Below are positions 26,651 to 61,895 of a DNA stretch of 64,000 nucleotides, piece by piece. Within the stretch, counting starts at the first letter, position 1; the number at the start of each line of letters is the position of its first letter. The stretch lies in contig NW_027362763.1 in NCBI RefSeq assembly GCF_046119375.1, positions 240,684,001 through 240,748,000 of the forward strand, read 5' to 3'. The stretch is from Phyllobates terribilis. Lineage: Eukaryota. The notes under the pieces are model-generated. The model saw nothing but the letters and a program-made list of their open reading frames with translations, was not told the DNA's origin and did not search any database. Position numbers and translations under genes: made by a program.

Positions 26651-28285
26651 GTGGGAGTGCTTCATGCGAGAATTCTGAATGGCGGTAAAGTGGGAACCCC
26701 TGGAGAGGGGGGCACAAGGGCCTTTCTATGGGAAGCTTTGGCTGTCGTTTTACTGGTAATTGGGGCTCTGGGTTACACTATAGTGGGAGAGGGCGGGCAC
26801 GCTAGATGTGGCTCGCAACTACTCTCAGAACTGAATGTGACTCTCAAGGTAAGAAAGGTTGGTGACCACTGCTATAGGGACTGGTTCAATTATTCCACCA
26901 AAATGTCACATTAATTCTTCCTTCTTGAAGATTAAATTGATTAAATTGAAACTTTGTAACATGACTTTTATGGTGTTGTCTATGCTTTATTTGTGCACCA
27001 TATGATTTTTTTTAGTATATAGTCTATAATTGCAAGTTTGTTTTTCCTCTGATAGTTGAACAGGTGATTTCTGACAGGCATTGTGGGAGATACGGATTAA
27101 CCGCAGCCGGCATCACACGGGCAGTAAGTACCTTATAAAAGGGGAAGGGGCGGTATCTTAGCAACAAGTGACACAATGAATTACAGTCTAGACAAAATCA
27201 AAAAATTCCATTGTCATTTATCATTAGCATAGAAAGCATTACACATTCACCAACCCACAGAGATTATTTTTATGAAACTATCTTCTACAATGGCAGCAGC
27301 GCTGAGAATACTGATGTTAGCATGCCTTTTCCCAGATACAGTAGTCTTTCCCCCAGGCCTAACTAGAAATCAACTTAGCAATACGCAATGGAAGAAGCGA
27401 CTCTCTGGAGGACGACACAAGTGGTGATTACCAACAACAGGCCGCTCATAACTTTGCCTTATGCATATTACTGCTATCTGTTTAACTGATGGTCTGGCTG
27501 GAAAATGATTTCCACTGAGCAATTTGTTTTTGCACACAAGAGGATCTTGGTTACAGTGATATAATAAGACATGTAACCATGTATCTGTAGTGACAGCTAT
27601 TTACTGCGCAGCATGGAAGCCGATACAATAGCCACTATTGTGTTCTCTTACAATGGAGCAGTATGTTTCTCCCTTATTGTATGTGAGAGGAAAGGGGGCC
27701 TGTATAAACGCCAGAAGTCACAGGCAAAACATTGTTCTTGCACATGCATTACATTGCCCATTAGCTCCCGTTGTATTGTGAAAAATAAGGCCACGATTAT
27801 ATTTAATGCTATAAGATGAAATTGAGACTTCGCAGAATAGAGAAAAGCGGCTATAGTATTATCCTGTTATAACCCTATGACTTTCAGGGGAGAAATTATG
27901 ATCGATATTGTTAGAGTAGGTGGAGTATGAACCTTAATTAAAGAATAACTAAACCTTTGTAAGGTTATTTCATATTTCTCAGTGCCCTCATAATTACAAG
28001 AATATTAGCAGGGGTCCTAAGACCCCAAGAATCTCTCAAAACTTCTCCTGTGTTCTGAGCTGTGCACTTTCAGGGGAACAGACCGGAGTACGGATTCAAT
28101 GGAATAGAGTATGAAGCCTTTGCTTTCTGTTGAAGGTGCACCCCGCTCTGTGTGCGCGCTCAGAAGCTGGGCACTACTGTATGTTGAGCTGTGCATCTTT
28201 CGTGGGAAGTTTTCAGAGATCGGTGTGGTTCTCAGGACCTGGACTCCCACTGATCTGCTTGTACTTAAAAGGACACCTTATAAAG

Positions 28286-28809: not shown

Positions 28810-29504
28810 ATATAAAGGTTTAGTTACACTTTACGTCTGAACTGTCGCCTGAGTATCCTAGTTGCGGACTTGGCTGGTCAGCAGACAGTTTGTATGTGTT
28901 TAAGTACTACAACAGCCCTTAGCATGCTTTGTTAATAGACATAACGGGTGGGCTTAATATAGCATGTCATCATTCATTATGCATTCTAACCAATCATGAA
29001 TGTACTCATTGAATAAATATACATAATTACACCATCAGATAAAGTACATATGGGTCACAGAAACTTATTTCATCCTAGTTTTACACTTATTTTTACCTCT
29101 ATGATTACTATTTCAATATGAAAGCACCCACCCCAGGCAATCTATCGATTATCTCAAGTGCTAAACGAGATGAGGTCTCCTGGTCACTAATGAATTCTGC
29201 TTTGTGTTAAACCAGGAAGCAAAGTCTCAGTAATTGTGATGTCCTAACTTGTAACCGCCACACGTGGGTCTAGAAATTTCCACAGGAAAAGTTCAGGGTA
29301 CTACTCCGGAACTAAACTCTGTGAGCAACTTTTGACAGGCAGCTGAACTAAGAAACCCAAGGTTTTTTAGTCTGGAGAGAAAGGGTCATGGTAGCCAGAG
29401 TTCAGTCATCAGCAATCAACAGGCAGAGATCAGGAGTGGGCAACAGTCAAGACGACCTAGTCAAATATGACATAGTCAACCATGCAGGCCAATTAATATT
29501 ATGC

Positions 29505-34356: not shown

Positions 34357-34962
34357 GTGTACCATGTGTGCGTGCGTGTGTATGCGTACCGTGTGCGTGC
34401 ATGTGTCTGCGTACCGTGTGTGCGTGCATGTGTCTGCGTACCGTGTGTGCGTGCGCGTGTCTGTGTACCGTGTGTGCGTGCGCGTGTCTGCGTTCCGTGT
34501 GTGCGTGCATGTGTCTGCGTACCGTGTGTGCGTGCATGTGTCTGCGTACCGTGTGTGCGTGCATGTGTCTGCGTACCGTGTGTGCGTGCATGTGTCTGCG
34601 TACCGTGTGTGCGTGCATGTGTCTGCGTACCGTGTGTGCGTGCATGTGTCTGCGTACCGTGTGTGCGTGCATGTGTCTGCGTACCGTGTGTGCGTGTATG
34701 TGTCTTCGTACCGTGGTTGCGTGTATGTGTCTGCGTACCGTGTGTGCGTGCATGTGTCTGCGTACCGTGTGTGCGTGCATGTGTCTGCGTACCGTGTGTG
34801 CGTGCATGTGTCTGCGTACCATGTGTGCGTGCATGTGTCTGCGTACCGTGTGTGCGTGCATGTGTCTGCGTACCGTGTGTGCGTGCATGTGTCTGCGTAC
34901 CGTGTGTGCGTGCATGTGTCTGCGTACCGTGTGTGCGTGTATGTGTCTTCGTACCGTGGTTG
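34357..34962. repeat. 27-bp minisatellite (GTGTGTGCGTGCATGTGTCTGCGTACC), left part
   Basis: About 22 tandem copies; the array resumes at 39811 after the LTR element. Confidence 0.95.
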
Positions 34963-36148
34963 TGTAGCACCCTGAGGATTCGGCTGCTACAGGGGTATTG
35001 CACCTCAACCCAGAGGTGTGATATTCCACTCCCGGGTAAGGATGGAGTGTGGATCTGAGCTCGGTAGGCTGCATGCACTACACACATCCCATTTCCGAGG
35101 AGCAGACCGACGGTACTCCCACTTAGAAATGTGCAGGTACAACCGAGTCTGTTCCTGGCTGGAGTGGGAGGGGGGTGGAACATCCCAAGTAGTGTAGGGG
35201 CAGATAGGGGGAGCAGCCTGGGTAAAGATAGGAGCTCATTGGGTGCTGGTCACCTGAGCTCACACATAGAGGGTGTATATAAGGTGGGCACCAACTAAGA
35301 ACAGGGTCAGTTGCAGAGAGAAAGTCAGCGAGCGGAGGAGAAGAGAGACCCAGAGTGAGAGAGGAGAAAGAGAGACCCAGAGGGGGAAACAGAAGAAAAG
35401 GACTCCAAGAACCCAACTTAAATCCCCGGGTGAAGAGTCGGCACAGGGTACCGGAACCCAAGCTGGTGGGGGCAAAAACACACCCCAGCCAGAGACCGGA
35501 GGCCGTGGGCAGCGTTTGCCACGGCCACCCACCACATCCACCACGAAGGCACACCACGTGGAGGGTCAGGGAACCCAAGGCCAAGGGTCTCCCAACAGAA
35601 GGCCCGAGGGAGCTGGACCTGGGTGGATCTCTAGTGGGGACGGCCAGAGGAAAGGACAGAAGGAGAGCTCAGGGTCACGCTCCGGACTTATTTGGGGGTT
35701 GACTGGATCCAGAACCTGGTGGACGCAGCACGGTTCGGGAGGTCACTCGAAGCTGGAGTGACCGGAACATCAGCAGTGAGTAAACATCCTAAACTGCATA
35801 ACCCGACTCTGTCTCTGATTGCCGTCTACACTGCATCACCACAACCCCCATCCTCTGCACCTGATCCCCCTGAGGCTATACCCCACCCGTTGGGGGTTAT
35901 ATCATCACAAGCTGCACCTGCACCATCAGCCTCAGCGGACCCTGCTGCAGCGGCGGCCATAGTGACCGCAACACAACGGGTGGCGTAGTCGACATTAAGA
36001 ACTTAGTAACATCTGTAGGACTGCCACATACAACTCAGTTTGACACCCTGGGCACGGACCGGGTCACAGCCACTCGGAAGACTACAACCCCCATCTGATC
36101 CGGCTCCGGATATTCCCCCTAAAAGAATATGGCCCAGGGGGCGCGTCA
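34963..36148 (+). repeat. 5' LTR (1186 bp)
   Basis: Runs TGTAGCACCCTGAGG...GGGGCGCGTCA. TATATAA at 35276-35282; AGTAAA (possible polyA variant) at 35779-35784. Confidence 0.93.
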
Positions 36149-38171
36149 ACTTTGGCGTAGTCGGCAGGATTACGTGCCCACAACAACCGGGTACTGCGTG
36201 CCTGAAGAAAAGAATGAGTTTACCTCAAAGAGAAGTCTCCTGCCGGTTCCGGAGGGTCCCCGCCATCGGACCCCATCACCAGTCGATTCCCGCCGGTTGT
36301 CCGCCATTAACAGCGTTTTCCCGCCATCTGCAGAGTTTCCCGCCACTGGGAAGCGATTCCCGCCATTTCCAAAGGTTTCCCACCTTGGAAGAGCGGACGC
36401 CATTATGGGCGTGCCAGAGGGTGGCGAGAGGCCACCTCCCATCGTGGGCCAGGACCGACAATGGCGCCAAAAGTGGAAACCGCCCCCACCAACAGAGACT
36501 GTGATGCTAGAGGTGTCTGTCAGCGTGAAAGAACAGCCCCTGGAGCTGACAGTCACCAAGTGGCCTCGGGACCGCCCTCGAAGGGGGAGGAGACGAAAGG
36601 AGAGAACAAAGATGGGTGCCGCCTGGAGGAGTCTGGAGCGAGCGCACCCGGAGGCAAGAAGCCTGGAGAGGAGTAGCAGAGAAGCTCACCCGGAGATGGC
36701 CAGAGAGCAGAGCAGCACCGGCCCGCTGGCCAGGAGCCTGCTGGAAGAAGAGCAGAGCAGCACCGACCCGTTGGTCAGGAGCCTGCTGGAAACCACGACC
36801 CCACTAGGCCTAGTGGAGGTCCTCGCACAGCTCCCCCGAGACCGGGAGTGTGCACAGACTGCCCTGGAGGGCCTCGCACGGAGGATGGCCCGGGTACAGC
36901 GAGAGACATTGGCGGAGTGGAGCCGAGAGATGGCCCAGCAAACCAAGACCCGGAGCACGCCAGCCAAGATGAGGAGACAGACCGCCTCTGAGGATGGCGC
37001 GGGAGGACCCAAGGCCGGAGACGGCGCCGAGAAGGGAGCCGAACGCATGGAGGCAGGTAAAGGGGACGTCTATACCCCAAACCAGGACACCGCTTACCTG
37101 CCCCAGCTCCCCGTCGCAGAGCCCGAAAGTCCCCCTGCTGTGCCCGAAAACGCCATGTCACCGACGCAGACTAGGCCCCAACCGGAAGCCGCCGCCGCGA
37201 CCCCTGTGACGCCATGCGCACCGACCCCGAGCGTGGCAAAACAGGAAGTAACACCAGCCTGGTCGCAGGGCCTAGAATTCCCGGGCGTCGCATCACCAAC
37301 AGCGCCCCCTACCTCCGCGGAGCCTCCGGCCTGGCCGCAAGGCCAGGTAGCCCAGGGCGCCGCCGTCCTGACGGTGCCCTTCACCTTCCAGGTGCCCCAG
37401 GCCTGGCCGCAAGGCCTGGGCAACCCGGGCGCCACCACCACCGCGCCCGCACCCGTAAAACCAAGGGTGCCGCGTCTGGGAGAGGACTTGTTTGCCCAGC
37501 ACACGTGGCCGGACGGGCAGCCTTTCATCTGGCCCCAGAGATATTATGAACTGGAGCACCAGAGGAGAGTTGGGGCCATGTGTGCACCCCTGATTCCGGC
37601 TCCGAAGCCCGTGATAAGGATCTCGCCCCCGCTTGAAGAGACCCAATTTGAGTGGGACCCCACCGGAGAAGACCTAATGGGGTTCACTCAAGAAACCAGG
37701 GCAGCTGCAGCGGAGCGTGCTGAGTGCTGCCGACAGCAGCTCGAGGAGTATGCGAGGGAGCGGAGAGAGAGGCGGGTCCGGGAACAACAGGCCCAAATAA
37801 GGAGCGCCGAGCAGAAGAGCCGAACCAGGAGGGACCCCCGTGCAGCGCACAGTCCCCGCACCACCGGGACTGTAATTAAGTTCAACATGCAGCATGGGTG
37901 GGGCTTCATCAGAGACCACAACACCCCCGGCGACGTCTTTGTCACGCGCAGAGATGTGGAGTCCCATCTGCCGGAGGGGCACAGAGGTCGTGACCTTTAT
38001 ATCGGGGACGAGGTCACCTTTACCCGGCACAAGTGTGCCAAAGGACCTTACGCCCTCCATGTGCATCGCCTGACAGAGGAGGAGCTGCGATGTGAGGAGG
38101 AAGAGCAAGAGGATCCGGACGGGTCTGAAGCTGAGATCCCCAAAGAAGGAGCAGGAGGAAGACGTTGTTGA
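36129..38171 (+). CDS. 680-aa protein: Pro/Ala-rich low-complexity region, charged coiled-coil, C-terminal cold-shock domain, acidic tail
   Basis: Uninterrupted 2043-nt frame. Residues about 580-648 (nt 37866-38072) read GTVIKFNMQHGWGFIRDHNTPGDVFVT...DLYIGDEVTF...KGPYALHV, with RNP1-like GWGFI and RNP2-like DVFV motifs. The true start codon is uncertain. Confidence 0.8.
   Translation: MAQGARQLWRSRQDYVPTTTGYCVPEEKNEFTSKRSLLPVPEGPRHRTPSPVDSRRLSAINSVFPPSAEFPATGKRFPPFPKVSHLGRADAIMGVPEGGERPPPIVGQDRQWRQKWKPPPPTETVMLEVSVSVKEQPLELTVTKWPRDRPRRGRRRKERTKMGAAWRSLERAHPEARSLERSSREAHPEMAREQSSTGPLARSLLEEEQSSTDPLVRSLLETTTPLGLVEVLAQLPRDRECAQTALEGLARRMARVQRETLAEWSREMAQQTKTRSTPAKMRRQTASEDGAGGPKAGDGAEKGAERMEAGKGDVYTPNQDTAYLPQLPVAEPESPPAVPENAMSPTQTRPQPEAAAATPVTPCAPTPSVAKQEVTPAWSQGLEFPGVASPTAPPTSAEPPAWPQGQVAQGAAVLTVPFTFQVPQAWPQGLGNPGATTTAPAPVKPRVPRLGEDLFAQHTWPDGQPFIWPQRYYELEHQRRVGAMCAPLIPAPKPVIRISPPLEETQFEWDPTGEDLMGFTQETRAAAAERAECCRQQLEEYARERRERRVREQQAQIRSAEQKSRTRRDPRAAHSPRTTGTVIKFNMQHGWGFIRDHNTPGDVFVTRRDVESHLPEGHRGRDLYIGDEVTFTRHKCAKGPYALHVHRLTEEELRCEEEEQEDPDGSEAEIPKEGAGGRRC
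36153..36171 (+). promoter_or_regulatory. Primer-binding site, tRNA-Ser
   Basis: TGGCGTAGTCGGCAGGATT, 4 nt after the LTR, is the reverse complement of the vertebrate tRNA-Ser(AGA/TGA) 3' end ...AATCCTGCCGACTACG-CCA (recalled sequence). Confidence 0.9.
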
Positions 38172-38616
38172 GTACAGCGGAGTAGGTGCTGTAAATAGTT
38201 ACCCGATCGGGGTATAAAGAAACTGTTACTGCAAATATAGTCCCCGTTGGGACCAGCTGAGTGAACTGTTTACCAGTTTACCCTTAATCCCACAGGCTGA
38301 GGACTGTGAGCAGCCATTCCCTTTCCCTCCTTAACTGGCCGAGGACTGAGAGCGGCCATATCCCTTGTATATAGTTGCGCTTCCTAAAGCGCCCCCTACC
38401 GGTTTTATAGGAAAACCATTTTTCTAGAAAGACTGTCGCACTTTGCCCGGTCAACAGTTGCACAGTGACCGGAGGAGAAACAAGAGACGACGAGAATGTT
38501 TTATCTGAAAAGTTTTATATATATATAATGTTTTATATGTTTTATATGTTTATGGAAAAAATTTTGTATGTTTTTGGTGTTATGTCTTACAGCCCGAGGA
38601 CGTGCTGTGATTTACC

Positions 38617-38625
38617 AGGGGGGAA
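38617..38625 (+). promoter_or_regulatory. Polypurine tract
   Basis: AGGGGGGAA directly abuts the 3' LTR TGTAGC. Confidence 0.85.
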
Positions 38626-39810
38626 TGTAGCACCCTGAGGATTCGGCTGCTACAGGGGTATTGCACCTCAACCCAGAGGTGTGATATTCCACTCCCGGGT
38701 AAGGATGGAGTGTGGATCTGAGCTCGGTAGGCTGCATGCACTACACACATCCCATTTCCGAGGAGCAGACCGACGGTACTCCCACTTAGAAATGTGCAGG
38801 TACAACCGAGTCTGTTCCTGGCTGGAGTGGGAGGGGGGTGGAACATCCCAAGTAGTGTAGGGGCAGATAGGGGGAGCAGCCTGGGTAAAGATAGGAGCTC
38901 ATTGGGTGCTGGTCACCTGAGCTCACACATAGAGGGTGTATATAAGGTGGGCACCAACTAAGAACAGGGTCAGTTGCAGAGAGAAAGTCAGCGAGCGGAG
39001 GAGAAGAGAGACCCAGAGTGAGAGAGGAGAAAGAGAGACCCAGAGGGGGAAACAGAAGAAAAGGACTCCAAGAACCCAACTTAAATCCCCGGGTGAAGAG
39101 TCGGCACAGGGTACCGGAACCCAAGCTGGTGGGGGCAAAAACACACCCCAGCCAGAGACCGGAGGCCGTGGGCAGCGTTTGCCACGGCCACCCACCACAT
39201 CCACCACGAAGGCACACCACGTGGAGGGTCAGGGAACCCAAGGCCAAGGGTCTCCCAACAGAAGGCCCGAGGGAGCTGGACCTGGGTGGATCTCTAGTGG
39301 GGACGGCCAGAGGAAAGGACAGAAGGAGAGCTCAGGGTCACGCTCCGGACTTATTTGGGGGTTGGCTGGATCCAGAACCTGGTGGACGCAGCACGGTTCG
39401 GGAGGTCACTCGAAGCTGGAGTGACCGGAACATCAGCAGTGAGTAAACATCCTAAACTGCATAACCCGACTCTGTCTCTGATTGCCGTCTACACTGCATC
39501 ACCACAACCCCCATCCTCTGCACCTGATCCCCCTGAGGCTATACCCCACCCGTTGGGGGTTATATCATCACAAGCTGCACCTGCACCATCAGCCTCAGCG
39601 GACCCTGCTGCAGCGGCGGCCATAGTGACCGCAACACAACGGGTGGCGTAGTCGACATTAAGAACTTAGTAACATCTGTAGGACTGCCACATACAACTCA
39701 GTTTGACACCCTGGGCACGGACCGGGTCACAGCCACTCGGAAGACTACAACCCCCATCTGATCCGGCTCCGGATATTCCCCCTAAAAGAATATGGCCCAG
39801 GGGGCGCGCA
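38626..39810 (+). repeat. 3' LTR (1185 bp)
   Basis: Copy of 34963-36148 at offset 3663. By eye only an A/G change (35702 vs 39365) and a 1-nt indel near the end were seen. Confidence 0.93.
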
Positions 39811-39990
39811 GTTGCGTGTATGTGTCTGCGTACCGTGTGTGCGTGCATGTGTCTGCGTACCGTGTGTGCGTGCATGTGTCTGCGTACTGTGTGTGCGTGC
39901 GCATGTCTGCGTACTGTGTGTGCGTGCGCATGTCTGCGTACCATGTGTGCATGTCTGCATACCGTGTGTGTGTGCGCATGTCTGCATGTG
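39811..39990. repeat. 27-bp minisatellite, right part
   Basis: Continues GTTGCGTGTATGTGTCTGCGTACCG exactly as in the uninterrupted variant unit at 34716-34740. Confidence 0.9.
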
Positions 39991-46186: not shown

Positions 46187-48581
46187 CATAGAATCATAGA
46201 ATCATAGAATCATAGAATGTAGAGTTGGAAGGGACCTCCTGGGTCATCTGGTCCAACCCCCTGCTCAAAGCAGGATTCACTAAATCATCTCAAACAGATG
46301 TCTGTCCAGCCTCTGTTTGAAGACGTCCATTGAAGGGGAACTCACCACCTCTCGTGGCAGCCTGTTCCACTCATTGATCACCCTCACTGTCAAAAAGTTT
46401 TTTCTAATATCTAATCTGTGTCTCCTCCCATTTAGTTTCATCCCATTGCTTCTAGTCTTTCCTTGTGCAAATGAGAATAAAGATGATCCTTCTACAATGT
46501 GACAGCCCTTGACATATTTGTAGACAGCTATTAAGTCTCCTCTCAGTCTTCTTTTTTGCAAGCTAAACATTCCCAAATCCTGCAACCGTTCCTCATAGGA
46601 CATGGTTTGCAGACCAGTCACCATTCTGGTCGCTCTTCTCTGAACTTGCTCCAGTTTGTCTATGTCTTTTTTAAAATGTGGTGCCCAAAACTGTACACAG
46701 TATTCCAGATGAGGTCTGACCAAAGAGGAGTAAAGTCCGATAATGACTTCACGTGATCTAGACTGTATGCTTCTGTTAATACATCCCAGAATTGTATTTG
46801 CCTTTTTTGCTGCTGCATCACACTGTTGACTCATGTTCAGTCTATGATCTATTAGTATACCTAAGTCTTTTTCACATGTACTGTTGCTTAGCTCTATTCC
46901 TCCCATTCTGTATATGCTTTTTTCATTTTTATTGCCCAGATGTAGTACTTTGCATTTTTCCCTGTTAAAAACCATTCTGTTGGTTGCTGCCCACTGCTCC
47001 AGTTTATTTAGGTCTTTTTGAATCCTCTCTCTCTCTTCTCTAGTATTAGCTATCCCTCCTAGCTTTGTGTCATCAGCAAATTTAATCAGTTTACCCTCAA
47101 TTCCTTCATCTAAATCATTGATAAAGATGTTGAACAATACAGGTCCCAGGATGGAGCCCTGTGGTACCCCACTTGAGACATTCATCCAGCTGGATGTGAA
47201 GCCATTTACAACCACCCTTTGAGTCCGATCACTAAGCCAGTTATGAATCCACCTAACAGTTGCCTAGTCCATTGCATACTTGGTCATTTTTTCAATAAGG
47301 ATGGTGTGAGATACTTTGTCAAATGCTTTGCTGAAGTAAAGATATACTATATCTACAGCATTTCCCTGATCCACCCAGTCAGTGATTCTGTCATAGAAGG
47401 AAATTAAGTTAGTCTGACATGACTTGTTAGTTACAAACCCATGCTGACTCTGGTTAATCACTTCATTCTTATCCATGTACTTACCTACATGTTGTTTAAT
47501 AATTTGTTCAAAGATCTTTCCTGGTATAGAAGTCAGACTCACCGGCCTATAGTTCCCTGGGTCCACCTTCTTCCCCTTTTTGAAGATAGGAACAACATTT
47601 GCTCTTCTCCAGTCTTCTGGGACTTCTCCTGTTCTCCAAGAATTTTCAAAGATTATGGAGAGTGGTTCTAAAATTTCTTCTACGATCTCCTTCAGTACTC
47701 TGGGGTGTAATTCATCTGGACCTGGAGACTTGAACTCATTTATGTTAGCTAAATATTCCCTCACAATCTTTCTGTTTACAGATAACTTGGATTCTTCTAT
47801 TCCTTTAAAACGACAGTGAAGATCAGTTGATGATACATTTTCTTTCTGAGAGAAAACAGATGCAAAATAGGAATTAAAAAGTTCGGCCTTCTCAACATCC
47901 TCTCTTACCATTTCTCCATTTTCATCCTGTAAAAATCCTATAGCATCTTTGACTTTTCTTTTACTTTTGACATACCCCCAAAATCCTTTTTTGTTGCTTT
48001 TGACATCTCTTGCAAGCCTTAATTCATTGTCAGCTTTAGCTAACCTGATACGTGCCCTACAGGATCTGCAGACTGCATTATAATCTTCTTTAGATATGCC
48101 TCCCTCTTTCCATTTAATAAACATTTCTTTCTTTCTTTTTAGCATGTGTTTAAGTTCTGTGTTCATCCATCCTGGTTTCCTTAAATGCTTCCCATTCTTC
48201 CTACTTTTCGGGATTGTTAACGATTGTGCTTTGAGAATCTCAGTTTTAAAAATTTCCCATCCTTCCTGGACATTTTTGTCCTTAAGGACATCCAGCCATT
48301 GGATCCCTCCTATTCTCTTTCTGAGTCTCTTAAAATCTGCCTTTCTAAAATCTAACCTTGAAGTTTGAGTCTTCACATGTCTTCCTCCTCTAGTTATCGA
48401 AAATTCTATAATAGCATGATCGCTGCCTCCTAGGGTCCCAGCCACCTTTACCTCCTCAACCATTTCATCCCTGTTTATAAGGATTAGATCCAAAGTAGCA
48501 GATCCCCTTGTTTTCTCCCCTACCTTTTGGAAGATAAAGTTGTCAGCAAGAGAGGATAAGAATTTGCTTGACCTGTTAGTT
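46187..48581 (-). mobile_element. 5'-truncated CR1 LINE
   Basis: (ATTCTATG)n 3' tail at 46187-46217 on the minus strand. ORF2 pieces 47264-48493 and 46280-47215 are in one frame, split by a CAG-to-TAG stop. RT motifs KFADD and QGSILGP present. Confidence 0.95.
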
Positions 48582-49332
48582 AGGTGTTATGGAAGCAACC
48601 TGGGCTTCCATAACACCTCAGCAGTGCCACAGGCTGATCGTCTCAATGCCACGCCGCATTAATGCAGTAATTGATGCAAAAGGAGCCCCGACCAAGTATT
48701 GAGTGCATTTACTGAACATACATTTCAGTAGGCCAACATTTCAGATTTTAAAAACATTTTTCAAGCTGTTGTTATAAAGTATTCTAATTTACTGAGATAA
48801 TGACTTTTGTGTTTTCATTGGCTGTAAGGCATAATCATCAACATTAACAGAAATAAACACTTGAAATAGATCACTCTGTCTGTAATGACTCTATATAATT
48901 GTTATGATCTGCTACAGGGACTAAGGAAAGACAGGAGAACTGTCCCTACAATAGAACTAAACTAGATCCCTACGATGTAACGGGGAACCTGATCCTGCGA
49001 TCAGACCCGCTAAAGTCCTCGGCTAGTCTGAACGAAGACCTATAGATGTGAGGGAGGGATCCCTACAAGAACTAGGGACTGGGATAAGTTGGACACCTCG
49101 TAGCAGAAATAGTAGCAGTCAAAGACAAACACACAACAAAAAGCATAGAGGTCAGAAGACCTAGCAAAACTAACAGAGAATGGCAACAGAGCACCAAGCT
49201 AGCTCAAGAGTAGTAAATACAATGAAGTCCAGCAAGACCAGGAGGGCGGAGCCGGATTAAATAGGCAAAAATGCACGTGACCAGCAAACTAAAAAAAACC
49301 TAACAGGAGAGTTCTAACAGTACCCCCCTCTT

Positions 49333-51726
49333 CTAAGAGGATCCTCCGGATCCCCTAGGCCCAGGCTTACCAGGAAACCTCCTGTGAAACGCTCTGACAA
49401 GTCTGGAAGCAGAAACATCATCCGCCCTCACCCATGAGTTATCCTCAGGTCCGAAACCCTTCGAAGCGACGAGATACTGCAAACTCCCTCTATACCGTCT
49501 AGAATTTAGGATGCGGGAAATTTCATATTCTTCGTCCTCCACCACCGGAGGAACATTGGCAGAGGCGTCACCATCAGACACATCAGCTTTTTTCAACAGA
49601 GAAACATGAAACACCGGGTTAATCTTCCAGGACGTAGGAACCTCCAACCTAACAGCAGATTGGTTAACTATCTGAAGCACCTTAAAGGGCCCTACGAACT
49701 TGGGACCCAATTTTTTAGAAGGAATCCTCAATCGCAGATTCTTAGAGGACAACCAAACCATGTCACCAACAGCAAACAAAACCTCTTGCCGTTTCCTATC
49801 AAAGTACCTCTTAGATTTTTTGTTAGCCTCCTGAAGATTACCACGCACATCCGTCCAAACTCTCTCCAAATCACCGGAAAAACTCTCCTCCTCAGGCACA
49901 GCCGAAACCAATTTTGAGAATGACCCAAAAGACGGATGTCTCCCAGAACAACAAAAAAAAGGCGAACACCCAGCAGAAGAGGATGTATGGTTGTTAAGAG
50001 CAAATTCAGCAAGTGGCAGAAACTCAGACCACCCCTCTTGATTGTCTGCCACAAAACAACGCAAGAACTGCTCAACATCCTGGTTCTTCCTTTCTGTCTG
50101 GCCATTAGACTCAGGATGATATCCAGATGAAAACGACAAATGAACTCCCAACCTGTCACAAAAGGCACGCCAAAAACGAGCCACGAACTGAGGTCCCCTA
50201 TCAGAAACAATGTCAGTAGGAGCACCATGCAGTCTGACAATTTCCTTGACAAAGGCCTTAGCGAGTGTCTTAGCGCAAGGCAGTTTGATGAAGGGAACCA
50301 AGTGACACATCTTGCTAAAACGGTCCACGACCACCCAGATGACCGTGAAACCTTCAGAGGGGGGAAGGTCAGTAATAAAGTCCATAGCCAGATGTGTCCA
50401 AGGTGCACTAGGAACCTCCAGAGGGCAAAGCAACCCCGCAGCAGGAGCATGCCAAGACTTGGATCTAGCCCACACAGTACATTGGCGCACCCACTTAATG
50501 ACTTCCTTCTGCCATCCAGGCCACCAAAAACTGCGACCCACAAGTCTCTTGGTCTCAGAAATTCCTGGATGACCTGCCAACCGAGACTCATGACATTCAA
50601 CAAACAAATCTCTCCTAAAGGTCCTAGGCACAAACAACCTCCCATGGGGAGTGTTAGATGGGGCACTCTCCTGAGCTTTAAGAATCTCATCCTCCAAAAC
50701 GGAGTCCAAAGCAGCAATCACAACACCTTCTTGTAAAATGCTCTCCTCTTCCTCCTCAACACCGACCATGGGAGAAAAGCTGCGAGACAAAGCATCCGCT
50801 TTAACATTCTTGGTACCCGGGATGTAAGTAACGGAAAAATTAAACCGCGAGAAAAAAAGTGCCCACCTAGCCTGACGGGCATTCAAGCGCTTGGCAGCAT
50901 CAAGATAGATCAGATTTTTATGATCAGTGAAAACCTGAATGGGAAATTCAGCACCTTCCAAGAGGTGACACCAGTGTTCAAATGCGAGTTTAATTGCCAG
51001 CAATTCCCGATTACCAATATCGTAATTAAGTTCAGTCTCAGAAAATTTTTTTGAAAAAAAGGCACAGGGATGTACTCCATCCTTGTTTTCCTGAGACAAC
51101 ACCGCACCGACCCCCACTGAAGAAGCATCAACCTCAACCAAAAATGGCTTAGTCACATCAGGCTGCATAAGGATGGGAGCAGAGGTGAACCTCTCCTTTA
51201 GAAACACAAAAGCTTCAATGGCCTCAGAAGTCCACTGAACCGCATTAGCACCTTTCCTGGTGAGATCGGTCAGCGGTTTGACAATAATAGAAATTTTTTT
51301 TATGAATTTTCTGTAATAATTGGCGAAACCCAAAAACCTCTGTATCGATTTCAAACCAATAGGTCTAGGCCATTCCTGCACAGCTTGAACTTTAACCGGG
51401 TCCATCTCAAAACCTTCACTGGAGATAATGTAGCCCAAAAAACTAATTCTCTGTACAGCGAACTCACATTTCTCCAGCTTAGCAAAAAGCGAATTGTCCA
51501 TTAATAACTGTAATACCTCACGTACGCTCCTCCAATGAGACTCCAGATCAGGCGAATAAATCAGAATGTCATCCAAATACACAACCACATTTTTGCCGAT
51601 TAAAGGTCTAAGGATGTCATTAATAAGATTCTGAAAAAAATGCTGGAGCATTGGTAAGACCAAAAGGCATAACCAGATTCTCAAAATGACCCACAGGAGT
51701 GTTAAAAGCAGTCTTCCATTCATCAC
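49333..51726 (-). CDS. pol: Pol remainder: RT, RNase H, integrase, chromodomain
   Basis: VYLDDILIYS; VEVDASSVGVGAVL; integrase core HLAMDFIT...SDRGPQF...NGQTERKNQ; chromodomain EYEISRILNSRR...NSWV. Disconnected from the upstream frame by one indel. Confidence 0.9.
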   Translation of the reverse strand: MMNGRLLLTLLWVILRIWLCLLVLPMLQHFFQNLINDILRPLIGKNVVVYLDDILIYSPDLESHWRSVREVLQLLMDNSLFAKLEKCEFAVQRISFLGYIISSEGFEMDPVKVQAVQEWPRPIGLKSIQRFLGFANYYRKFIKKISIIVKPLTDLTRKGANAVQWTSEAIEAFVFLKERFTSAPILMQPDVTKPFLVEVDASSVGVGAVLSQENKDGVHPCAFFSKKFSETELNYDIGNRELLAIKLAFEHWCHLLEGAEFPIQVFTDHKNLIYLDAAKRLNARQARWALFFSRFNFSVTYIPGTKNVKADALSRSFSPMVGVEEEEESILQEGVVIAALDSVLEDEILKAQESAPSNTPHGRLFVPRTFRRDLFVECHESRLAGHPGISETKRLVGRSFWWPGWQKEVIKWVRQCTVWARSKSWHAPAAGLLCPLEVPSAPWTHLAMDFITDLPPSEGFTVIWVVVDRFSKMCHLVPFIKLPCAKTLAKAFVKEIVRLHGAPTDIVSDRGPQFVARFWRAFCDRLGVHLSFSSGYHPESNGQTERKNQDVEQFLRCFVADNQEGWSEFLPLAEFALNNHTSSSAGCSPFFCCSGRHPSFGSFSKLVSAVPEEESFSGDLERVWTDVRGNLQEANKKSKRYFDRKRQEVLFAVGDMVWLSSKNLRLRIPSKKLGPKFVGPFKVLQIVNQSAVRLEVPTSWKINPVFHVSLLKKADVSDGDASANVPPVVEDEEYEISRILNSRRYRGSLQYLVASKGFGPEDNSWVRADDVSASRLVRAFHRRFPGKPGPRGSGGSS

Positions 51727-53404
51727 CCTCCTTCATGCGCAACAAATTGTATGCCCCCCGGAGATCAATTTTAGAGAACCACTTGGCCCCCACTAACTGG
51801 TTAAATAAATCAGGAATCAATGGCAGTGGGTAAGGATTGCGTACAGTAATTTTATTAATCTCACGAAAGTCCAGACAAGGACGTAAACCACCATCTTTTT
51901 TTTTTACAAAAAAAAATCCAACAGCCACAGGAGACTTGGAAGGCCTAATGTGACCGGCGGCCAAGCTTGTATGTATGTATTCCTCCAAAGCCTTTCTCTC
52001 AGGAATAGTAAGATTAAATAAACGACTTTTAGGAAGAGTAGCTCCAGGGACAAATTCAATGGTACAATCATAGTCTCTATGGGGAGGCAAAATTTGTGAC
52101 TCCTCCTCAGAAAAAACTCTCCAAAAATCCTGAATAGGTACAGGCAATTCCCCTTTATCCACAGCAGCAATACGTCCGTTACAACACTTGTCATAACACT
52201 TAGGGCTCCAGGACTTAATTTCATTGATAGACCAATCCAGTACAGGATTGTGCAATTTTAACCAGGGTAACCCCAATATTACTGGAGAAGGCAAATTATC
52301 CAATACCACCAAATCCAAATTTTCTTGGTGAATACCATTGATAGTGAGGGGAAATTCACAGACCTTATGAGTAACACTCTTCAAGGGAGAGCCATCAACA
52401 GAAACCACAGCAATAGGGGATGACAAAGTTTTAGGTTCTAATCTAAGTTTTTCCAAGAATCCCCCATCAATCACATTCAGAGTAGAACCACAATCCACAA
52501 ATACCCGAAATTCAATTAATTCATCCTGAGCAGCAGTAGTGGCAGATAGGAATACTCCCTTAGAATTTAAACAGGCAATACGGGCATAACGGACCATTTT
52601 TTTTTCTTTCTTCAAACGAAGCACACAGTTCTTAATAAAATGACCAGAATTTCCGCAATAGAAGCACAAGCCTTCAGAAAGCCTGCAATCTTTTTCCTGA
52701 GAGCGGGGTGGCATCGCCCCAATCTCCATCGGCTCTCCATTGTCAGCACAGACCCTCTCAAGACTCGGAGCTGACATAGCAGAGGATTTGCTCTCATTAA
52801 CCCTTGCACGCAGTCTCCTGTCCACCCGTATAGCTAATTGCATAGCCTCCTGCAAGTTTCCAGGTGTGGGATAAGCAATCAGTAAATCCTTAACCCTTTC
52901 ACCTAGCCCTGCAAGAAACAAGCTTTTCAAAACTGAATCGTTCCACCCCACCTGGGCAGACCACCGACGGAAGTGAGAACAATATTTTTCCACATTACCT
53001 GATCCCTGCCTCAAACGTCTCAATTCAGACTCAGCAGATGAGACACGATCAGGATCATCATACAACAAACCCAAAGCAGAAAAAAAACTATCCACTGATC
53101 TAAAGCATGGATCACTAGGTTGGAGAGAGAAGGCCCATCCCTGAGGATCTTTGCGCAAAAGTGACATTATGAACCCTATGCGCTGTGATTCATCACCAGA
53201 GGATCCGGGTCTCAAACGAAAATACAATAAACAAGCATTTTTAAAAGAAAAAAAATCTTGTTGTTCGCCAAAAAATAAATCAGGCAGACGTACCTTTGGT
53301 TCCACAAAATGTGCTCCAGAACAGCTACTCACGTGTTGTTGGAGCTTGGCCACCTCCAGAGAGAGTCCCTGCAAGCTTTGAGCCAAATCTTGAACCGAGA
53401 CCAT
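51620..53404 (-). CDS. gag: Gag (CCHC knuckle), protease and RT N-terminus
   Basis: CFYCGNSGHFIKNC zinc knuckle; FVDCGS protease motif; RT start LRPCLDFREIN...FSKIDLRGAYN...FGLTNAPA. The frame ends just after a 7-nt homopolymer. Confidence 0.9.
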   Translation of the reverse strand: MVSVQDLAQSLQGLSLEVAKLQQHVSSCSGAHFVEPKVRLPDLFFGEQQDFFSFKNACLLYFRLRPGSSGDESQRIGFIMSLLRKDPQGWAFSLQPSDPCFRSVDSFFSALGLLYDDPDRVSSAESELRRLRQGSGNVEKYCSHFRRWSAQVGWNDSVLKSLFLAGLGERVKDLLIAYPTPGNLQEAMQLAIRVDRRLRARVNESKSSAMSAPSLERVCADNGEPMEIGAMPPRSQEKDCRLSEGLCFYCGNSGHFIKNCVLRLKKEKKMVRYARIACLNSKGVFLSATTAAQDELIEFRVFVDCGSTLNVIDGGFLEKLRLEPKTLSSPIAVVSVDGSPLKSVTHKVCEFPLTINGIHQENLDLVVLDNLPSPVILGLPWLKLHNPVLDWSINEIKSWSPKCYDKCCNGRIAAVDKGELPVPIQDFWRVFSEEESQILPPHRDYDCTIEFVPGATLPKSRLFNLTIPERKALEEYIHTSLAAGHIRPSKSPVAVGFFFVKKKDGGLRPCLDFREINKITVRNPYPLPLIPDLFNQLVGAKWFSKIDLRGAYNLLRMKEGDEWKTAFNTPVGHFENLVMPFGLTNAPAFFSESY

Positions 53405-54020
53405 GATGGAAAACTGGAGGTCTTTCCTTAGAGAAAATTTTTATTTTTTTTTTTCTTTTAGGGCTGGACTTACTGTTATGATCTGCTACAGGGACTAAGG
53501 AAAGACAGGAGAACTGTCCCTACAATAGAACTAAACTAGATCCCTACGATGTAACGGGGAACCTGATCCTGCGATCAGACCCGCTAAAGTCCTCGGCTAG
53601 TCTGAACGAAGACCTATAGATGTGAGGGAGGGATCCCTACAAGAACTAGGGACTGGGATAAGTTGGACACCTCCTAGCAGAAATAGTAGCAGTCAAAGAC
53701 AAACACACAACAAAAAGCATAGAGGTCAGAAGACCTAGCAAAACTAACAGAGAACGGCAACAGAGCACCAAGCTAGCTCAAGAGTAGTAAATACAATGAA
53801 GTCCAGCAAGACCAGGAGGGCAGAGCCGGATTAAATAGGCAAAAATGGTCATGTGAACAGCAAACTAAAAAAAACTAACAGGAGAGTTCTAACAATAATA
53901 TATGAGTCACTTTTTGTATTGAAGAACTGAAATAAATTAACTTTTTGATGATATTCTAATTTAGTGAGATGCACCTGTATACACACATAAAATGTACAGA
54001 AAAAAAGCCCAATAATTTAA

Positions 54021-57629: not shown

Positions 57630-58020
57630 TGGATGTAGTTAATCACAGCAATAACAAGTACAGTGAATATAAAAATTCTACATACCCTTGTTAGAATTCC
57701 ACGTTTTTGTTATGTAAAAAAATCATACCAAGAAGTATAGTTTCAGGACTTTTTTCACTTTTAATGACAACCATAATCTGTACAATTCAATTGAAAAATA
57801 AAATGTAGCAATTGTGAGGGGGAAAATAATACTAAAATAATGTGGTTCCAGAAGTGTGAACATAATTTGAGAAGTGGTTATGTTCAGAATTAGCCAATAA
57901 CATTTAAACTCATTTAAAGGGCTTATCATAGAATCATAGAATCATAGAATCATAGAATGGTAGAGTTGGAAGGGACCTCCTGGGTCATCTGGTCCAACCC
58001 CCTGCTCAAAGCAGGATTCA

Positions 58021-60810
58021 CTAGATCATCTCAGACAGATGTCTGTCCAGCCTCTGTTTGAAGACGTCCATTGAAGGGGAACTCACCACCTCTCGTGGCA
58101 GCCTGTTCCACTCATTAATCACCCTAACTGTCAAAAAGTTTTTTCTAATATCTAATCTGTGTCTCCTCCCATTTAGTTTCATCCCATTGCTTCTAGTCTT
58201 TCCTTGTGCAAATGAGAATAAAGATGATCCTTCTACAATGTGACAGCCCTTGATATATTTGTAGACAGCTATAAAGTCTCCTCTCAGTCTTCTTTTTTGC
58301 AAGCTAAACATTCCCAAATCCTGCAACCGTTCCTCATAGGACATGGTTTGCAGACCAGTCACCATTCTGGTCGTTCTTCTCTGAACTTGCTCCAGTTTGT
58401 CTATGTCTTTTTTAAAATGTGGTGCCCAAAACTGTACACAGTATTCCAGATGAGGTCTGACCAAAGAGGAGTAAAGACCGATAATGACTTCACGTGATCT
58501 AGACTGTATGCTTCTGTTAATACATCCCAGAATTGTATTTGCCTTTTTTGCTGCTGCATCACACTGTTAACTCATGTTCAGTCTATGATCTATTAGTATA
58601 CCTAAGTCTTTTTCACATGTACTGTTGCTTAGCTCTATTCCTTCCATTCTGTATATGCTTTTTACATTTTTATTGCCCAGATGTAGTACTTTGCATTTTT
58701 CCCTGTTAAAAACCATTCTGTTGGTTGCTGCCCACTGCTCCAGTTTATTTAGGTCTTTTTGAATCCTCTCTCTCTCTTCTCTAGTATTAGCTATCCCTCC
58801 TAGCTTTGTGTCATCAGCAAATTTAATCAGTTTACCCTCAATTCCTTCATCTAAATCATTGATAAAGATGTTGAACAATACAGGTCCCAGGACGGAGCCC
58901 TGTGGTACCCCACTTGAGACATTCATCCAGCTGGATGTGAAGCCATTTACAACCACCCTTTGAGTCCGATCACTAAGCCAGTTATGAATCCACCTAACAG
59001 TTGCCTGGTCCATTGCATACTTGGTCATTTTTTCAATAAGGATGATGTGAGATACTTTGTCAAATGCTTTGCTGAAGTCAAGATATACTATATCTACAGC
59101 ATTTCCCTGATCCACCCAGTCAGTGATTCTGTCATAGAAGGAAATTAAGTTAGTCTGACATGACTTGTTAGTTACAAACCCATGCTGACTCTGGTTAATC
59201 ACTTCATTCTTATCCATGTACTTACATACATGTTGTTTAATAATTTGTTCAAAGATCTTTCCTGGTATAGAAGTCAGACTCACCGGCCTATAGTTCCCTG
59301 GGTCCACCTTCTTCCCCTTTTTGAAGATAGGAACAACATTTGCTCTTCTCCAGTCTTCTGGGACTTCTCCTGTTCTCCAAGAATTTTCAAAGATTATGGA
59401 GAGTGGTTCTAAAATTTCTTCTACGATCTCCTTCAGTACTCTGGGGTGTAATTCATCTGGACCTGGAGACTTGAACTCATTTATGTTGGCTAAATATTCC
59501 CTCACAATCTTTCTGTTTACAGATAACCTGGATTCTTCTTTTCCTTTAATAGGACAGTGAAGATCAGTTGATGTTACATTTTCTTTCTGAGAGAAAACAG
59601 ATGCAAAATAGGAATTAAAAAGTTCGGCCTTCTCAACATCCTCTCTTACCATTTCTCCATTTTCATCCTGTAAAAATCCTATAGCATCTTTGACTTTTCT
59701 TTTACTTTTGACATACCCCCAAAATCCTTTTTTATTGCTTTTGACATCTCTTGCAAGCCTTAATTCATTGTCAGCTTTAGCTAACCTGATACGTGCCCTA
59801 CAGGATCTGCAGACTGCATTATAATCTTCTTTAGATATGCCTCCCTCTTTCCATTTAATAAACATTTCTTTCTTTCTTTTTAGCATGTGTTTAAGTTCTG
59901 TGTTCATCCATCCTGGTTTCCTTAAATGCTTCCCATTCTTCCTACTTTTCGGGATTGTTAACGATTGTGCTTTGAGAATCTCATTTTTAAAAATTTCCCA
60001 TCCTTCCTGGACATTTTTGTCCTTAAGGACATCCAGCCATTGGATCCCTCCTATTCTCTTTCTGAGTCTCTTAAAATCTGCCTTTCTAAAATCTAACCTT
60101 GAAGTTTGAGTCCTCACATGTCTTCCTCCTCTAGTTATCCAAAATTCTATAATAGCATGATCGCTGCCTCCTAGGGTCCCAGCCACCTTTACCTCCTCAA
60201 CCATTTCCTCCCTGTTTATAAGGATTAGATCCAAAGTAGCAGATCCCCTTGTTTTCTCCCCTACCTTTTGGAAGATAAAGTTGTCAGCAAGAGAGGATAA
60301 GAATTTGCTTGACCTGTTAGTTTTACTTGAGAGAGATTCCCAACAAATGTCTGGATAGTTGAAATCTCCCATGACCACTACGTCATATTTTTTGGAGAAC
60401 TTGGTCATTTGATACATAAAGAGTTCATCCATATCTTCAGCTTGCCCAGGTGGCCTGTAGTAAATGCCTACAATGGTGTCCTTTCCATTGTTCTCTCCTT
60501 GTATTCTTACCCAAACAGTTTCCACAGAACTCCCAGTCTCTGAAGCTTCAATCTCTGTGCAGATATACGCTTTTCTAACATACAATGCGACACCTCCTCC
60601 TCGTTTATCAAGTCTGTTTCTTGCAAATAAGTTGTATCCTTTTAGCCTTTTATTCCAATCATGTGTATCGTCCCACCAAGTTTCAGTGATTCCAATGACA
60701 TCATATTTCTTTTCCTGCATTAGTAGTTCCAATTCTCCTTGTTTGTTGCCCATGCTTTGTGCATTTGTATAAAAACATTTTAGTTTGTGATTGGTTTCTC
60801 TTCCTCCCAT
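58021..60810 (-). pseudogene. CR1 ORF2 (APE endonuclease plus RT) with one nonsense codon
   Basis: YTNAQS, GITETWW, MGDFNYPD and SDH endonuclease motifs; KFADD RT motif. TAA at 58567-58569 where the sister copy has CAA. Confidence 0.92.
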
Positions 60811-60932
60811 ATTTTTATTATTTAAATTGTTTTGTCTTTGTTCTTCTTTTCCACTTCCAGTAGCAGAGATCTCAATAGTATTTGTCAGCTGTATGGCTTT
60901 TTCTGGCCTTTTGCTTCCCTTCCCACATTGTT

Positions 60933-61895
60933 CTAGTTTAAAGCTCTTCTGATGAGTGTAGCAAGGCGACTTCCAAATACATGTTTTCCAGTCTTCGTAA
61001 GGTGCACCCCATCTCTAGCAAGTAATCCATCGTATAGGTAATTCATTCCGTGATCCAGAAATCCAAATCCTTGTTGACGGCACCATCGACGTAGCCAGTT
61101 GTTCACCTGTAGAATCTTATTCCACCTCATTGTTCCATGGTCATCCACTGGGAGGATAGATGAGAAGACCACCTGCGCTCCCAATTCTTTCACTTTCTTG
61201 CCTAAGTCTTCAAAGTCACTGCAGATGGTTTCCAGGTCCTTTCTTGCGGTGTCATTTGTCCCCACGTGTATTAGCAGGAATGGGTAGTGATCTGTAGGTC
61301 TGAAGAGTCTTGATATCCTGTCAGACACATCTTTAATTTTTGCTCCTGGAAGACAGCACATTTCTCTTGAGGTTATGTCTGGTCTGCAGATAGCGGCCTC
61401 TGTACCTCTTAACAGGGAATCCCCCATGACCACCACTCTCCTTTTTTTCTTCACAACATTCTTCTTTCTCCATCCAGGAGGATTCTGATGGCTTACAAGG
61501 TTATTCATTGCTGGCAAAGTCTTATTTTGCTGTATTTCTTCATGGTTCTCCTGCGTGAGAGCCTGTTACTGGTTTCTGAGCAGTATGGGTGCTGACTGCC
61601 TCTCGATCCTCCTGCTTCTGTGGGTCACATGCTTCCATTCCTCTGTTTCGTCAGGTGCAGTTCGAATTTCTTCTCTTTCTGAATCATGAAGAGATAATTC
61701 TGCTCTGTCTAAGAACTCTTCACCTTCCTTAATGATTTTCAAGGTAGTTAACCTCTCTTCTAGATTTCGCAACTTTTCCTCCAACAGGGACACAAGCTTG
61801 CATTTCTGGCATGTGAAGTTTGGCTTTTCCACTGGCAAGTCTGTGAACATGTAGCAGGATATGCAGCTCACCAAATGGCTCCTGGACTCTTCCAT
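60933..61895 (-). pseudogene. CR1 ORF1 (zinc finger/leucine zipper plus SGNH esterase) with one nonsense codon
   Basis: CISC...CQKC followed by a leucine zipper; GDSLL, HVGTND and DGVH esterase blocks. In-frame TAA at 61566-61568. Confidence 0.88.

Follow-up and report, generated by a model that had tools for sequence, protein, structure and literature searches.

How does a long terminal repeat (LTR) retrotransposon spread when it encodes none of the enzymes needed to copy and integrate itself? This question is raised by an element in a 64,000-nucleotide stretch of DNA from Phyllobates terribilis (contig NW_027362763.1, positions 240,684,001 to 240,748,000; hereafter 'the window'). The element occupies positions 34963-39810 of the window (4848 bp, + strand), and the only domain recognized in its product is a cold-shock domain (CSD). 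From genomic footprints, specifically swapped unique 5′ (U5) segments of the LTRs and one chimeric copy, it seems likely that this element and its relatives, which we call passengers, are mobilised in trans by a co-resident clan of Barthez-like Gypsy retrotransposons, which we call helpers.

The focal insertion is flanked on both sides by GTTG (34959-34962 and 39811-39814), a target-site duplication (TSD) that the initial annotation of this DNA had already described as perfect. The insertion site is a 27-bp minisatellite, in which the left copy is embedded, and because the empty-site unit GTGGTTGCGTG is also present upstream, near position 34706, the duplication is not an artefact of the repeat. 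A global alignment of the 5′ LTR (34963-36148, 1186 bp) with the 3′ LTR (38626-39810, 1185 bp) yields exactly two differences, the number reported initially: one substitution (A/G at 35702/39365) and one 1-bp indel (the T at 36146 is absent at 39808; compared with the family, it is the 3′ LTR that is one T short close to its end). The 5′ LTR is followed by a 4-nt spacer, ACTT, and a 19-nt primer binding site (PBS) for tRNA-Ser (together 36149-36171; PBS proper 36153-36171), and a polypurine tract (PPT; 38617-38625) abuts the 3′ LTR, both as previously annotated. The element thus carries all the marks of an LTR retrotransposon, namely TG...CA LTRs, PBS, PPT, TSD and dispersed copies, and all of these features are given on the + strand. 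By sequence comparison, the unique 3′ (U3) and repeat (R) portions of the 5′ LTR are specific to passengers, and its last ~310 bp form a U5 segment homologous to that of the helpers.

One open reading frame (ORF) extends for 682 codons from stop to stop (36123-38171, +) and takes up the internal region. Translation probably starts either at Met 36405, which is the more widely kept candidate, or at an ATG at 36129, which lies in U5 and is found in some subfamilies only. The predicted protein comprises a helical segment, a proline- and alanine-rich segment, a long helix, the CSD and an acidic tail. Its sole Pfam match is the C-terminal CSD (PF00313, 37866-38072, +; 34.2 bits against a cut-off of 27), and no gag or pol Pfam domain was detected in the ORF. 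A BLASTP comparison with helper gag gives a best E value of 1.6; the full-length single-sequence structure model (pLDDT 46) is too poor to exclude a remote fold likeness. We rejected a gag-only derivative of the TR-GAG, 1a11 or BHIKHARI type on the basis of the Pfam and BLASTP results.

An enzyme-free element of this kind could stem from one isolated internal deletion in a gag-pol element, could exist at a single locus only or could reflect an artefact of the assembly, but we give this explanation almost no chance of being correct. In a search of the 10.6-Gb genome (G000), the whole internal region was matched at 98-100% in 40 of 40 scored hits. Among the 30 closest loci, 28 could be parsed (all except L004 and L029), and these present 16 distinct flank sets and an open 673-codon frame in 26 cases. 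Some of the 30 copies do share flanks because they lie on duplicated scaffolds, and this duplication among the counted sites speaks both for an artefact and against our own reading. However, neither the two LTR differences nor the 16 flank sets are compatible with assembly collapse, and a deleted gag-pol element is opposed by the lack of gag similarity, by an independent U3 lineage, by dS values of up to 0.8 between subfamilies and by the occurrence of homologues in further genera of frogs. At the protein level, the named relatives belong to Phyllobates, Ranitomeya, Anomaloglossus and Bufo, and their annotation is either uncharacterised or Y-box-like; with ~8,000 candidates scored in each of two protein searches, this taxon range is a lower bound.

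The copy count that had been proposed as a check likewise disposes of a single-copy locus. A 25-nt pattern for the passenger-type 3′ junction occurs at 28,283 sites genome-wide (reversed-pattern control, 0), and a CSD family search returned 33,380 first-look candidates. Junction sites were taken in list order, and every copy sampled for its structure lies in the first 26 Mb of contig C1, which counts against our reading. A CSD is present at 36 of 40 sampled passenger sites and at all 17 that could be resolved among 20 more. In these 60 sites no pol was found between an element's own LTRs, and the sole pol hits, at L108 and L128, belong to neighbouring helpers. An ORF of at least 550 codons with a CSD is retained in 22 of 31 complete passenger copies. 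As a separate observation, focal-family copies also form a tandem array (L061-L064; G000:C7:157151655-157167465) of five LTRs and four internal regions in alternating 3653/3661-bp units, and further tandem forms were seen at L111, L128, L190 and L224.

The single substitution in 1185 positions dates the focal LTR pair to 0.17 My (95% interval 0.004-0.94) at 2.5e-9, the substitution rate used in PMC11152451. The earlier proposal of a recent retrotransposition that depended on enzymes supplied in trans is supported. The description of the element as very young is correct, but its age is typical of the family: the median LTR divergence of passengers is 0.25% (n=31) and 0.18% (n=15) in two samples. 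Helper medians are 0.71% and 0.67%; the ranges overlap, and identical LTR pairs occur in both groups. The initial claim of a high CpG content applies to the internal region (observed/expected 0.72) and not to the LTRs (0.46), which are close to the rest of the window (0.42; CpG frequency 5.1% versus 1.9%). Since sampled relatives have the same internal excess (median 0.78), it is a family trait.

The junction CA-4 nt-PBS without the focal continuation occurs at 29,193 sites, and among 40 that we read, 25 are followed by reverse transcriptase, RNase H and integrase (RT-RH-IN), nine represent further CSD-type subfamilies and six are interrupted, short or of another kind. The corresponding helper-type 3′ junction is found at 34,571 sites (reversed-pattern control, 0), and the complete order gag-protease (PR)-RT-RH-IN is present in 28 of 40 of these. 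If every junction site were full length, passengers would amount to ~0.1 Gb and helpers to ~0.3 Gb. The helper element measures ~7.9 kb with LTRs of ~1 kb, and encodes a gag of 335-364 amino acids and a pol of ~1390-1400 amino acids (PR 59-153, RT 416-575, RH 647-778, IN 915-1083). Among 22 complete copies both genes are open in eight, and most copies carry them in separate frames, with a single 1720-codon frame in one. The gag contains a CCHC motif and matches the Pfam PNMA family barely above the cut-off (E 9e-6, score 25.6 against 25); a sequence search matched it to no solved structure.

By its sizes, its pol order and its PNMA-type gag, rather than by placement in an RT tree, the helper would fit a Barthez-like Gypsy element. 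Pufferfish Barthez1 is listed with 7871 bp, LTRs of 1116 bp, a gag of 355 and a pol of 1394 residues (PMC11117352), so that the two resemble each other in their separate gag and pol, LTR length and total length; PNMA genes have been placed under Barthez (PMC3670739). The initial annotation had rightly expected a Gypsy partner with the same PBS and a 4-bp TSD, but its suggestion of a Gmr1-like element has to be abandoned. The reported pol order of Gmr1 is PR-IN-RT-RH (PMC2582038), which excludes it given the helper order PR-RT-RH-IN, and its clade is described as having gag and pol in one ORF (PMC11117352), as opposed to the mostly separate frames found here. Of the signals named in the proposed search for pol-bearing elements, the helpers have the PBS but not the passenger start TGTAGCACC: helper LTRs start with TGTGGCACC, TGTGACACC or TGTGTCACC and have their own U3. 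We also observed short helper derivatives with internal regions of 1.35-1.8 kb (L091, L099, L216 and L239); the identical structure of L216 and L239 suggests a further non-autonomous family.

The evidence for a partnership between helpers and passengers begins with their insertion sites. The two groups have in common the tRNA-Ser PBS, the 4-nt spacer, a 4-bp TSD (57 of 67 passengers, 38 of 42 helpers) and a TG|TSD|CA target bias. TG lies beside the TSD in 57 of 114 passenger half-sites (50%) and in 34 of 76 helper half-sites (45%), compared with a background of 7.7%, and five of six positions of the target profile are alike. TSDs of 5 bp were observed in three of the 67 passengers and one of the 42 helpers (L009, L020, L133 and L216). 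This genome houses a family that codes for pol and matches the passengers in cis signals and target signature.

A second line of evidence is that U5, but not U3, has moved between the groups. In a tree of the last 150 nt of the LTR (42 passengers, 27 helpers; L108, L073, L080, L084, L090, L104, L111 and passengers without a readable PBS were left out), the labels change 12 times, at least six of these changes are forced by starred branches, and monophyly of the passengers is rejected (p-AU 0.00036). The control tree of the first 150 nt, in U3 (59 rows), separates passengers from helpers cleanly, with one change and a support of 100. U5 identity reaches 0.91-0.98 in 100-nt windows for pairs such as L078/L070, L098/L085 and L135/L092, different passenger subfamilies match different helper subfamilies, and 300 nt of helper leader are present in L118/L140 at 0.92-0.96. 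The shared PBS, TSD length, target bias and U5 together support the two-component helper/satellite system that was proposed at the outset.

The third line is a chimeric copy (G000:C1:2269666-2273791, minus strand) in which a helper 5′ LTR and the PBS precede an internal region and a 3′ LTR of passenger type, with CTTA on both sides. Unlike LTRs joined at the PBS are the outcome that would be expected if plus-strand transfer, the mechanism of which is reviewed in PMC6894440, took place between molecules in a mixed particle.

The same helper could also be in place while the U5 sharing and the chimera arose within the genome, through gene conversion or ectopic recombination among copies already integrated. 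Such exchange is plausible given tens of thousands of copies whose U5 segments are ~74% identical, and the chimera is a single case whose TSD would match by chance at a rate of ~2%. We nevertheless consider this explanation unlikely, as the swapped U5 is found in both LTRs of TSD-bounded copies, the chimera junction falls at the PBS, which is the site of plus-strand transfer, and the chimeric 5′ LTR is 7.2% divergent from that of the neighbouring helper.

A different Ser-primed Gypsy element, for example one with the Gmr1 order, might be the true mobiliser, with the clan described here merely a relative. The U5 of the focal subfamily is only 0.63-0.81 identical to the best of the 27 sampled helpers, none of which is near-identical, and the current helper subfamily of the focal copy is therefore not pinned; moreover, 1,751 sites with a second Ser PBS, whose elements were not readable, could be a source of another mobiliser. 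Still, every pol that was read in one piece behind the passenger PBS has the order RT-RH-IN, and both the chimera and the U5 swaps involve the clan that was found, so that another mobiliser appears very improbable to us.

Several further results, like the poor U5 match of the focal subfamily, count against mobilisation by this Barthez-like clan. The target profiles differ at position -1 (p=0.019, uncorrected), and they were compared without an unrelated 4-bp-TSD family as a control. The chimera is the only one in 60 passenger sites, 20 of which were added in a search for further examples, and no reciprocal chimera was present in 40 helper junction sites. Finally, the sampled helpers look older than the passengers by LTR divergence.

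Both partners also carry a second copy of the start of the PBS (10-12 nt) inside U5, ~147-182 nt upstream of the PBS. In the focal element, the first 11 nt of the PBS recur at 35981-35991 (+), 172 nt upstream, and again in the U5 of the 3′ LTR (39644-39654, +). Allowing one mismatch, all 44 passengers and 26 of the 27 helpers have the copy, and it is exact in 42 of 44 and 21 of 27, respectively, compared with three of 14,200 shuffles; a conserved CCGCA..ACGGG motif precedes it. Its presence in both partners can be attributed to shared descent. The 1,751 sites mentioned above belong to a sister group that is primed by tRNA-Ser(CGA) and varies widely in the sequence of its 4-nt spacer; four of its members, all of CSD type, were read. 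In these older elements the U5 copy matches the alternative primer in L122 and L175, is mismatched in L178 and is absent from L179. That the copy follows the primer at two loci hints at a function. A search of the element RNA for an anti-PBS complement found none.

The identification of the focal primer as a tRNA-Ser rests on several loci at which the focal PBS continues into a longer tRNA copy with CCA; the body of this copy, variable arm included, matches a tRNA-Ser(CGA) gene that was called by both ARAGORN and Rfam at one of 12 loci. The isoacceptor used by the focal element we take to be AGA/UGA; no intact gene for it was present among the 12 loci examined, one of which ARAGORN called tRNA-Ala. 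At L196, L200 and L202-L205, the PBS of an LTR element is extended by as much as ~50 nt of tRNA-Ser sequence with CCA, and the extension in L204 reaches the anticodon; these stretches are copies of the mature primer, read through in reverse transcription.

What, then, might a passenger gain from its only protein? Across 29 ORFs, dN/dS is 0.10 for the CSD, 0.17 for the region that precedes it, 0.41-0.53 for the middle and 0.69 for the first 165 codons, and dS in the CSD is 0.79; with 25 ORFs, the CSD value is 0.08, and dS is 0.7-0.8 across the two sets. These are pooled pairwise Nei-Gojobori estimates, in which pairs are not independent, from 29 of 59 recovered ORFs, with one of the 28 near-identical focal copies kept and L107, L127 and L132 unused. 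They indicate strong purifying selection on the CSD across subfamilies. In a model of the domain built from an alignment (pLDDT 82.7), a long helix leads into a five-stranded OB barrel that is followed by a short helix, and Foldseek matches the model to CSD folds. Of the motifs, GWGFI and VFV are retained, and RRDV, which is basic, is conserved.

With a profile of 16 element CSDs, the best match is YB-1/YBX2 (E 9e-13), followed by CspA (3e-10), Lin28 (6e-5) and CSDE1 (2e-3), and the alignment requires one gap against Y-box proteins, by profile, and five against bacterial cold-shock proteins (Csp). Against a Y-box origin, bacterial Csp come out slightly higher when a single sequence or the structure is used for the search, with CspA above YBX by structure, and two Y-box residues, the Trp that precedes RNP1 and the His of RNP2, are replaced. 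Because the searches disagree in this manner, a Y-box origin of the domain is likely rather than demonstrated.

The CSD is not strictly required in cis. Passengers with a deleted or truncated CSD and young LTR pairs were observed at L078, L098, L105, L108, L115 and L128. Deleted forms make up four of the 40 sampled junction sites, and the pairs L108/L115 and L078/L098 share colinear deletions at ~84% identity; both facts tell against an indispensable role. Lineages of this kind have moved, which is why any role of the CSD must be that of an enhancer.

We propose that the passenger RNA would be started from the element's own U3 promoter and packaged in helper particles through the shared U5-PBS-leader region. 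Priming by tRNA-Ser would follow, helper enzymes would copy and integrate the passenger, and template switching between co-packaged RNAs may renew the passenger U5 from whichever helper subfamily is active. The CSD protein would bind single-stranded RNA, most likely its own transcript, and might, as a chaperone or mask, help that transcript to survive and to be packaged in germ cells. We favour binding of the element's own RNA since selection is most readily maintained on a passenger gene whose benefit comes back in cis, but this is the weakest step of the scheme, and we put it at slightly short of an even chance. By analogy, host YB-1 is reported to support HIV RNA metabolism and early steps (PMC6040738), and Gypsy RNA is described as abundant in the ova of one poison frog (PMC6278860).

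The protein may instead act elsewhere: it may compete with host Y-box masking proteins or with silencing by small RNAs, or its target may be the helper RNA, in a mutualist's or a competitor's role. The movement of CSD-deleted lineages indicates that the function can come from another copy in trans or be dispensed with, the presence of both partners at tens of thousands of copies would be consistent with another target, and bird endogenous retroviruses (ERVs) have repeatedly captured CSDs (PMC12287698). Strong purifying selection across subfamilies would be easier to keep if the benefit returned to the encoding RNA. We regard a role elsewhere as almost as probable as binding of the element's own RNA. 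More ambitiously, passengers could represent an old, frog-wide satellite that lost gag and pol, captured a Y-box CSD as its RNA chaperone and remains matched to changing helpers by adopting their U5 in mixed particles, with a second, primer-matched tRNA site in the U5 of both partners that functions in priming, dimerisation or small-RNA decoying, and with CSD-less derivatives as third-tier parasites. As a whole, this extended scenario is doubtful.

Other loci with CSDs were noted. L155/L176 (G000:C4:791520011) adjoins another CSD element and encodes a more divergent CSD that scores a weak 56 bits against the element profile, possibly a deeper lineage like that of the Bufo protein P0104. The poison-frog gene model P0152, named 'R3H and coiled-coil domain protein 1', starts with an element-type CSD and may be a fused gene model or an exapted first exon. 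Intronless tandem CSDs in repeated segments are present at L145-L150 (G000:C1:734436389-734450760), and presumably resemble a CSDE1/UNR retrocopy.

Regarding expression of the focal copy, the 5′ LTR contains a TATA-like box (35275-35284, +) as a predicted promoter and a predicted splice-donor-like GTGAGT that overlaps a poly(A)-like AGTAAA motif (35774-35784, +). In two of four runs, both of them taken as RNA by guesswork, contigs depart from the LTR at 35779, at the splice-donor-like motif, and continue into 255 unrelated letters; a spliced, LTR-driven transcript is possible, although that these runs are RNA is unproven. All 30 bins of the element are covered by contigs of four runs (three guessed to be RNA, one of unknown kind), in which DNA is not excluded, and this coverage was not used as evidence. 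Contigs across the right junction from four DNA runs contained no piece informative on the presence or absence of the insertion.

The window also holds a young chromovirus Gypsy element with a chromodomain and open frames (48900-53894, minus strand), which had been dismissed as a partner. We agree with its exclusion as a helper: its TSD has 5 bp (ATAAT), it lacks a TGG-type PBS, and it carries a 9-nt complement to its own LTR. This chromovirus splits a CR1-like LINE (46219-48586, minus strand), a near-identical second copy of which lies at 57960-61565 (minus strand) and has a GDSL/OSK-like esterase in its ORF1.

Partnerships between autonomous and non-autonomous LTR elements have precedents. 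In soybean, the SNARE system (SARE/SNRE) of Du et al. (2010) is reportedly a Copia partnership in which LTRs are swapped; passengers and helpers resemble it in that the partnership is renewed by LTR exchange, and we know of no captured CSD there. Zebrafish BHIKHARI is an LTR element without pol. Wheat RLG_Wilma, Sabrina and WHAM and sub-populations of RLC_Angela are described as non-autonomous families that co-evolve with an autonomous partner, with LTR transfer or 'host switches' proposed (PMC9744471). These families resemble the passengers in their high copy number and in sharing a PBS and LTR termini with the autonomous partner. The passengers differ in that they belong to an animal Gypsy system, keep their own U3 while swapping U5, and encode a host-type RNA-binding domain that is not gag-like.

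Among animals, Xenopus 1a11, xretpos and lambda-olt 2-1 are LTR elements without pol in tens to hundreds of copies, and 1a11 and xretpos resemble the passengers in having an ORF; both are expressed in embryos, and the 1a11 protein is Gag-like (PMC4585706). Amphibian elements of this class were judged probably immobile there, no helper is named in the passages on them, and the word 'cold' has no occurrence in that source (PMC4585706). Non-autonomous TRIMs, Helenus and Cassandra are given as non-coding elements of <1 kb with PBS and PPT, and animal Helenus elements, with 4-bp TSDs, are assigned to Gypsy helpers (PMC10886601); with 4848 bp and a 682-codon frame, the focal element is no TRIM. Captured CSDs are reported from 46 bird ERVs in several events (PMC12287698). 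Those are RT-bearing retroviruses with an added domain, unlike the passengers, a lineage of ~28,000 copies that lacks pol and has no gene besides the one for the CSD protein. PNMA-related metaviruses are described with an RNA-binding domain inside Gag (PMC10516033); here, it resides on a separate element. Our literature search found no paper on a frog CSD-only LTR element; Repbase/Dfam, subscription papers and supplements (e.g. table S6 of PMC12287698) lay outside it and may hold these families. Plant helper/passenger LTR pairs, CSD capture by bird ERVs and pol-less LTR elements of Xenopus are thus known, and their combination is apparently unreported.

In this vertebrate genome, a passenger approaches parity with its helper (28,283 versus 34,571 junction sites) and codes only for a host-type RNA-binding protein that is under selection. 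Homology pipelines would class passenger DNA as 'unknown LTR', a category that in one poison frog comprises 66,046 elements (PMC11152451). Gene builders label passenger ORFs as Y-box-like or fuse them to host genes. With this family it can be tested what benefit a CSD, a domain also captured repeatedly by bird ERVs, brings to a selfish element, and the family holds a natural record of recombination between helper and passenger.

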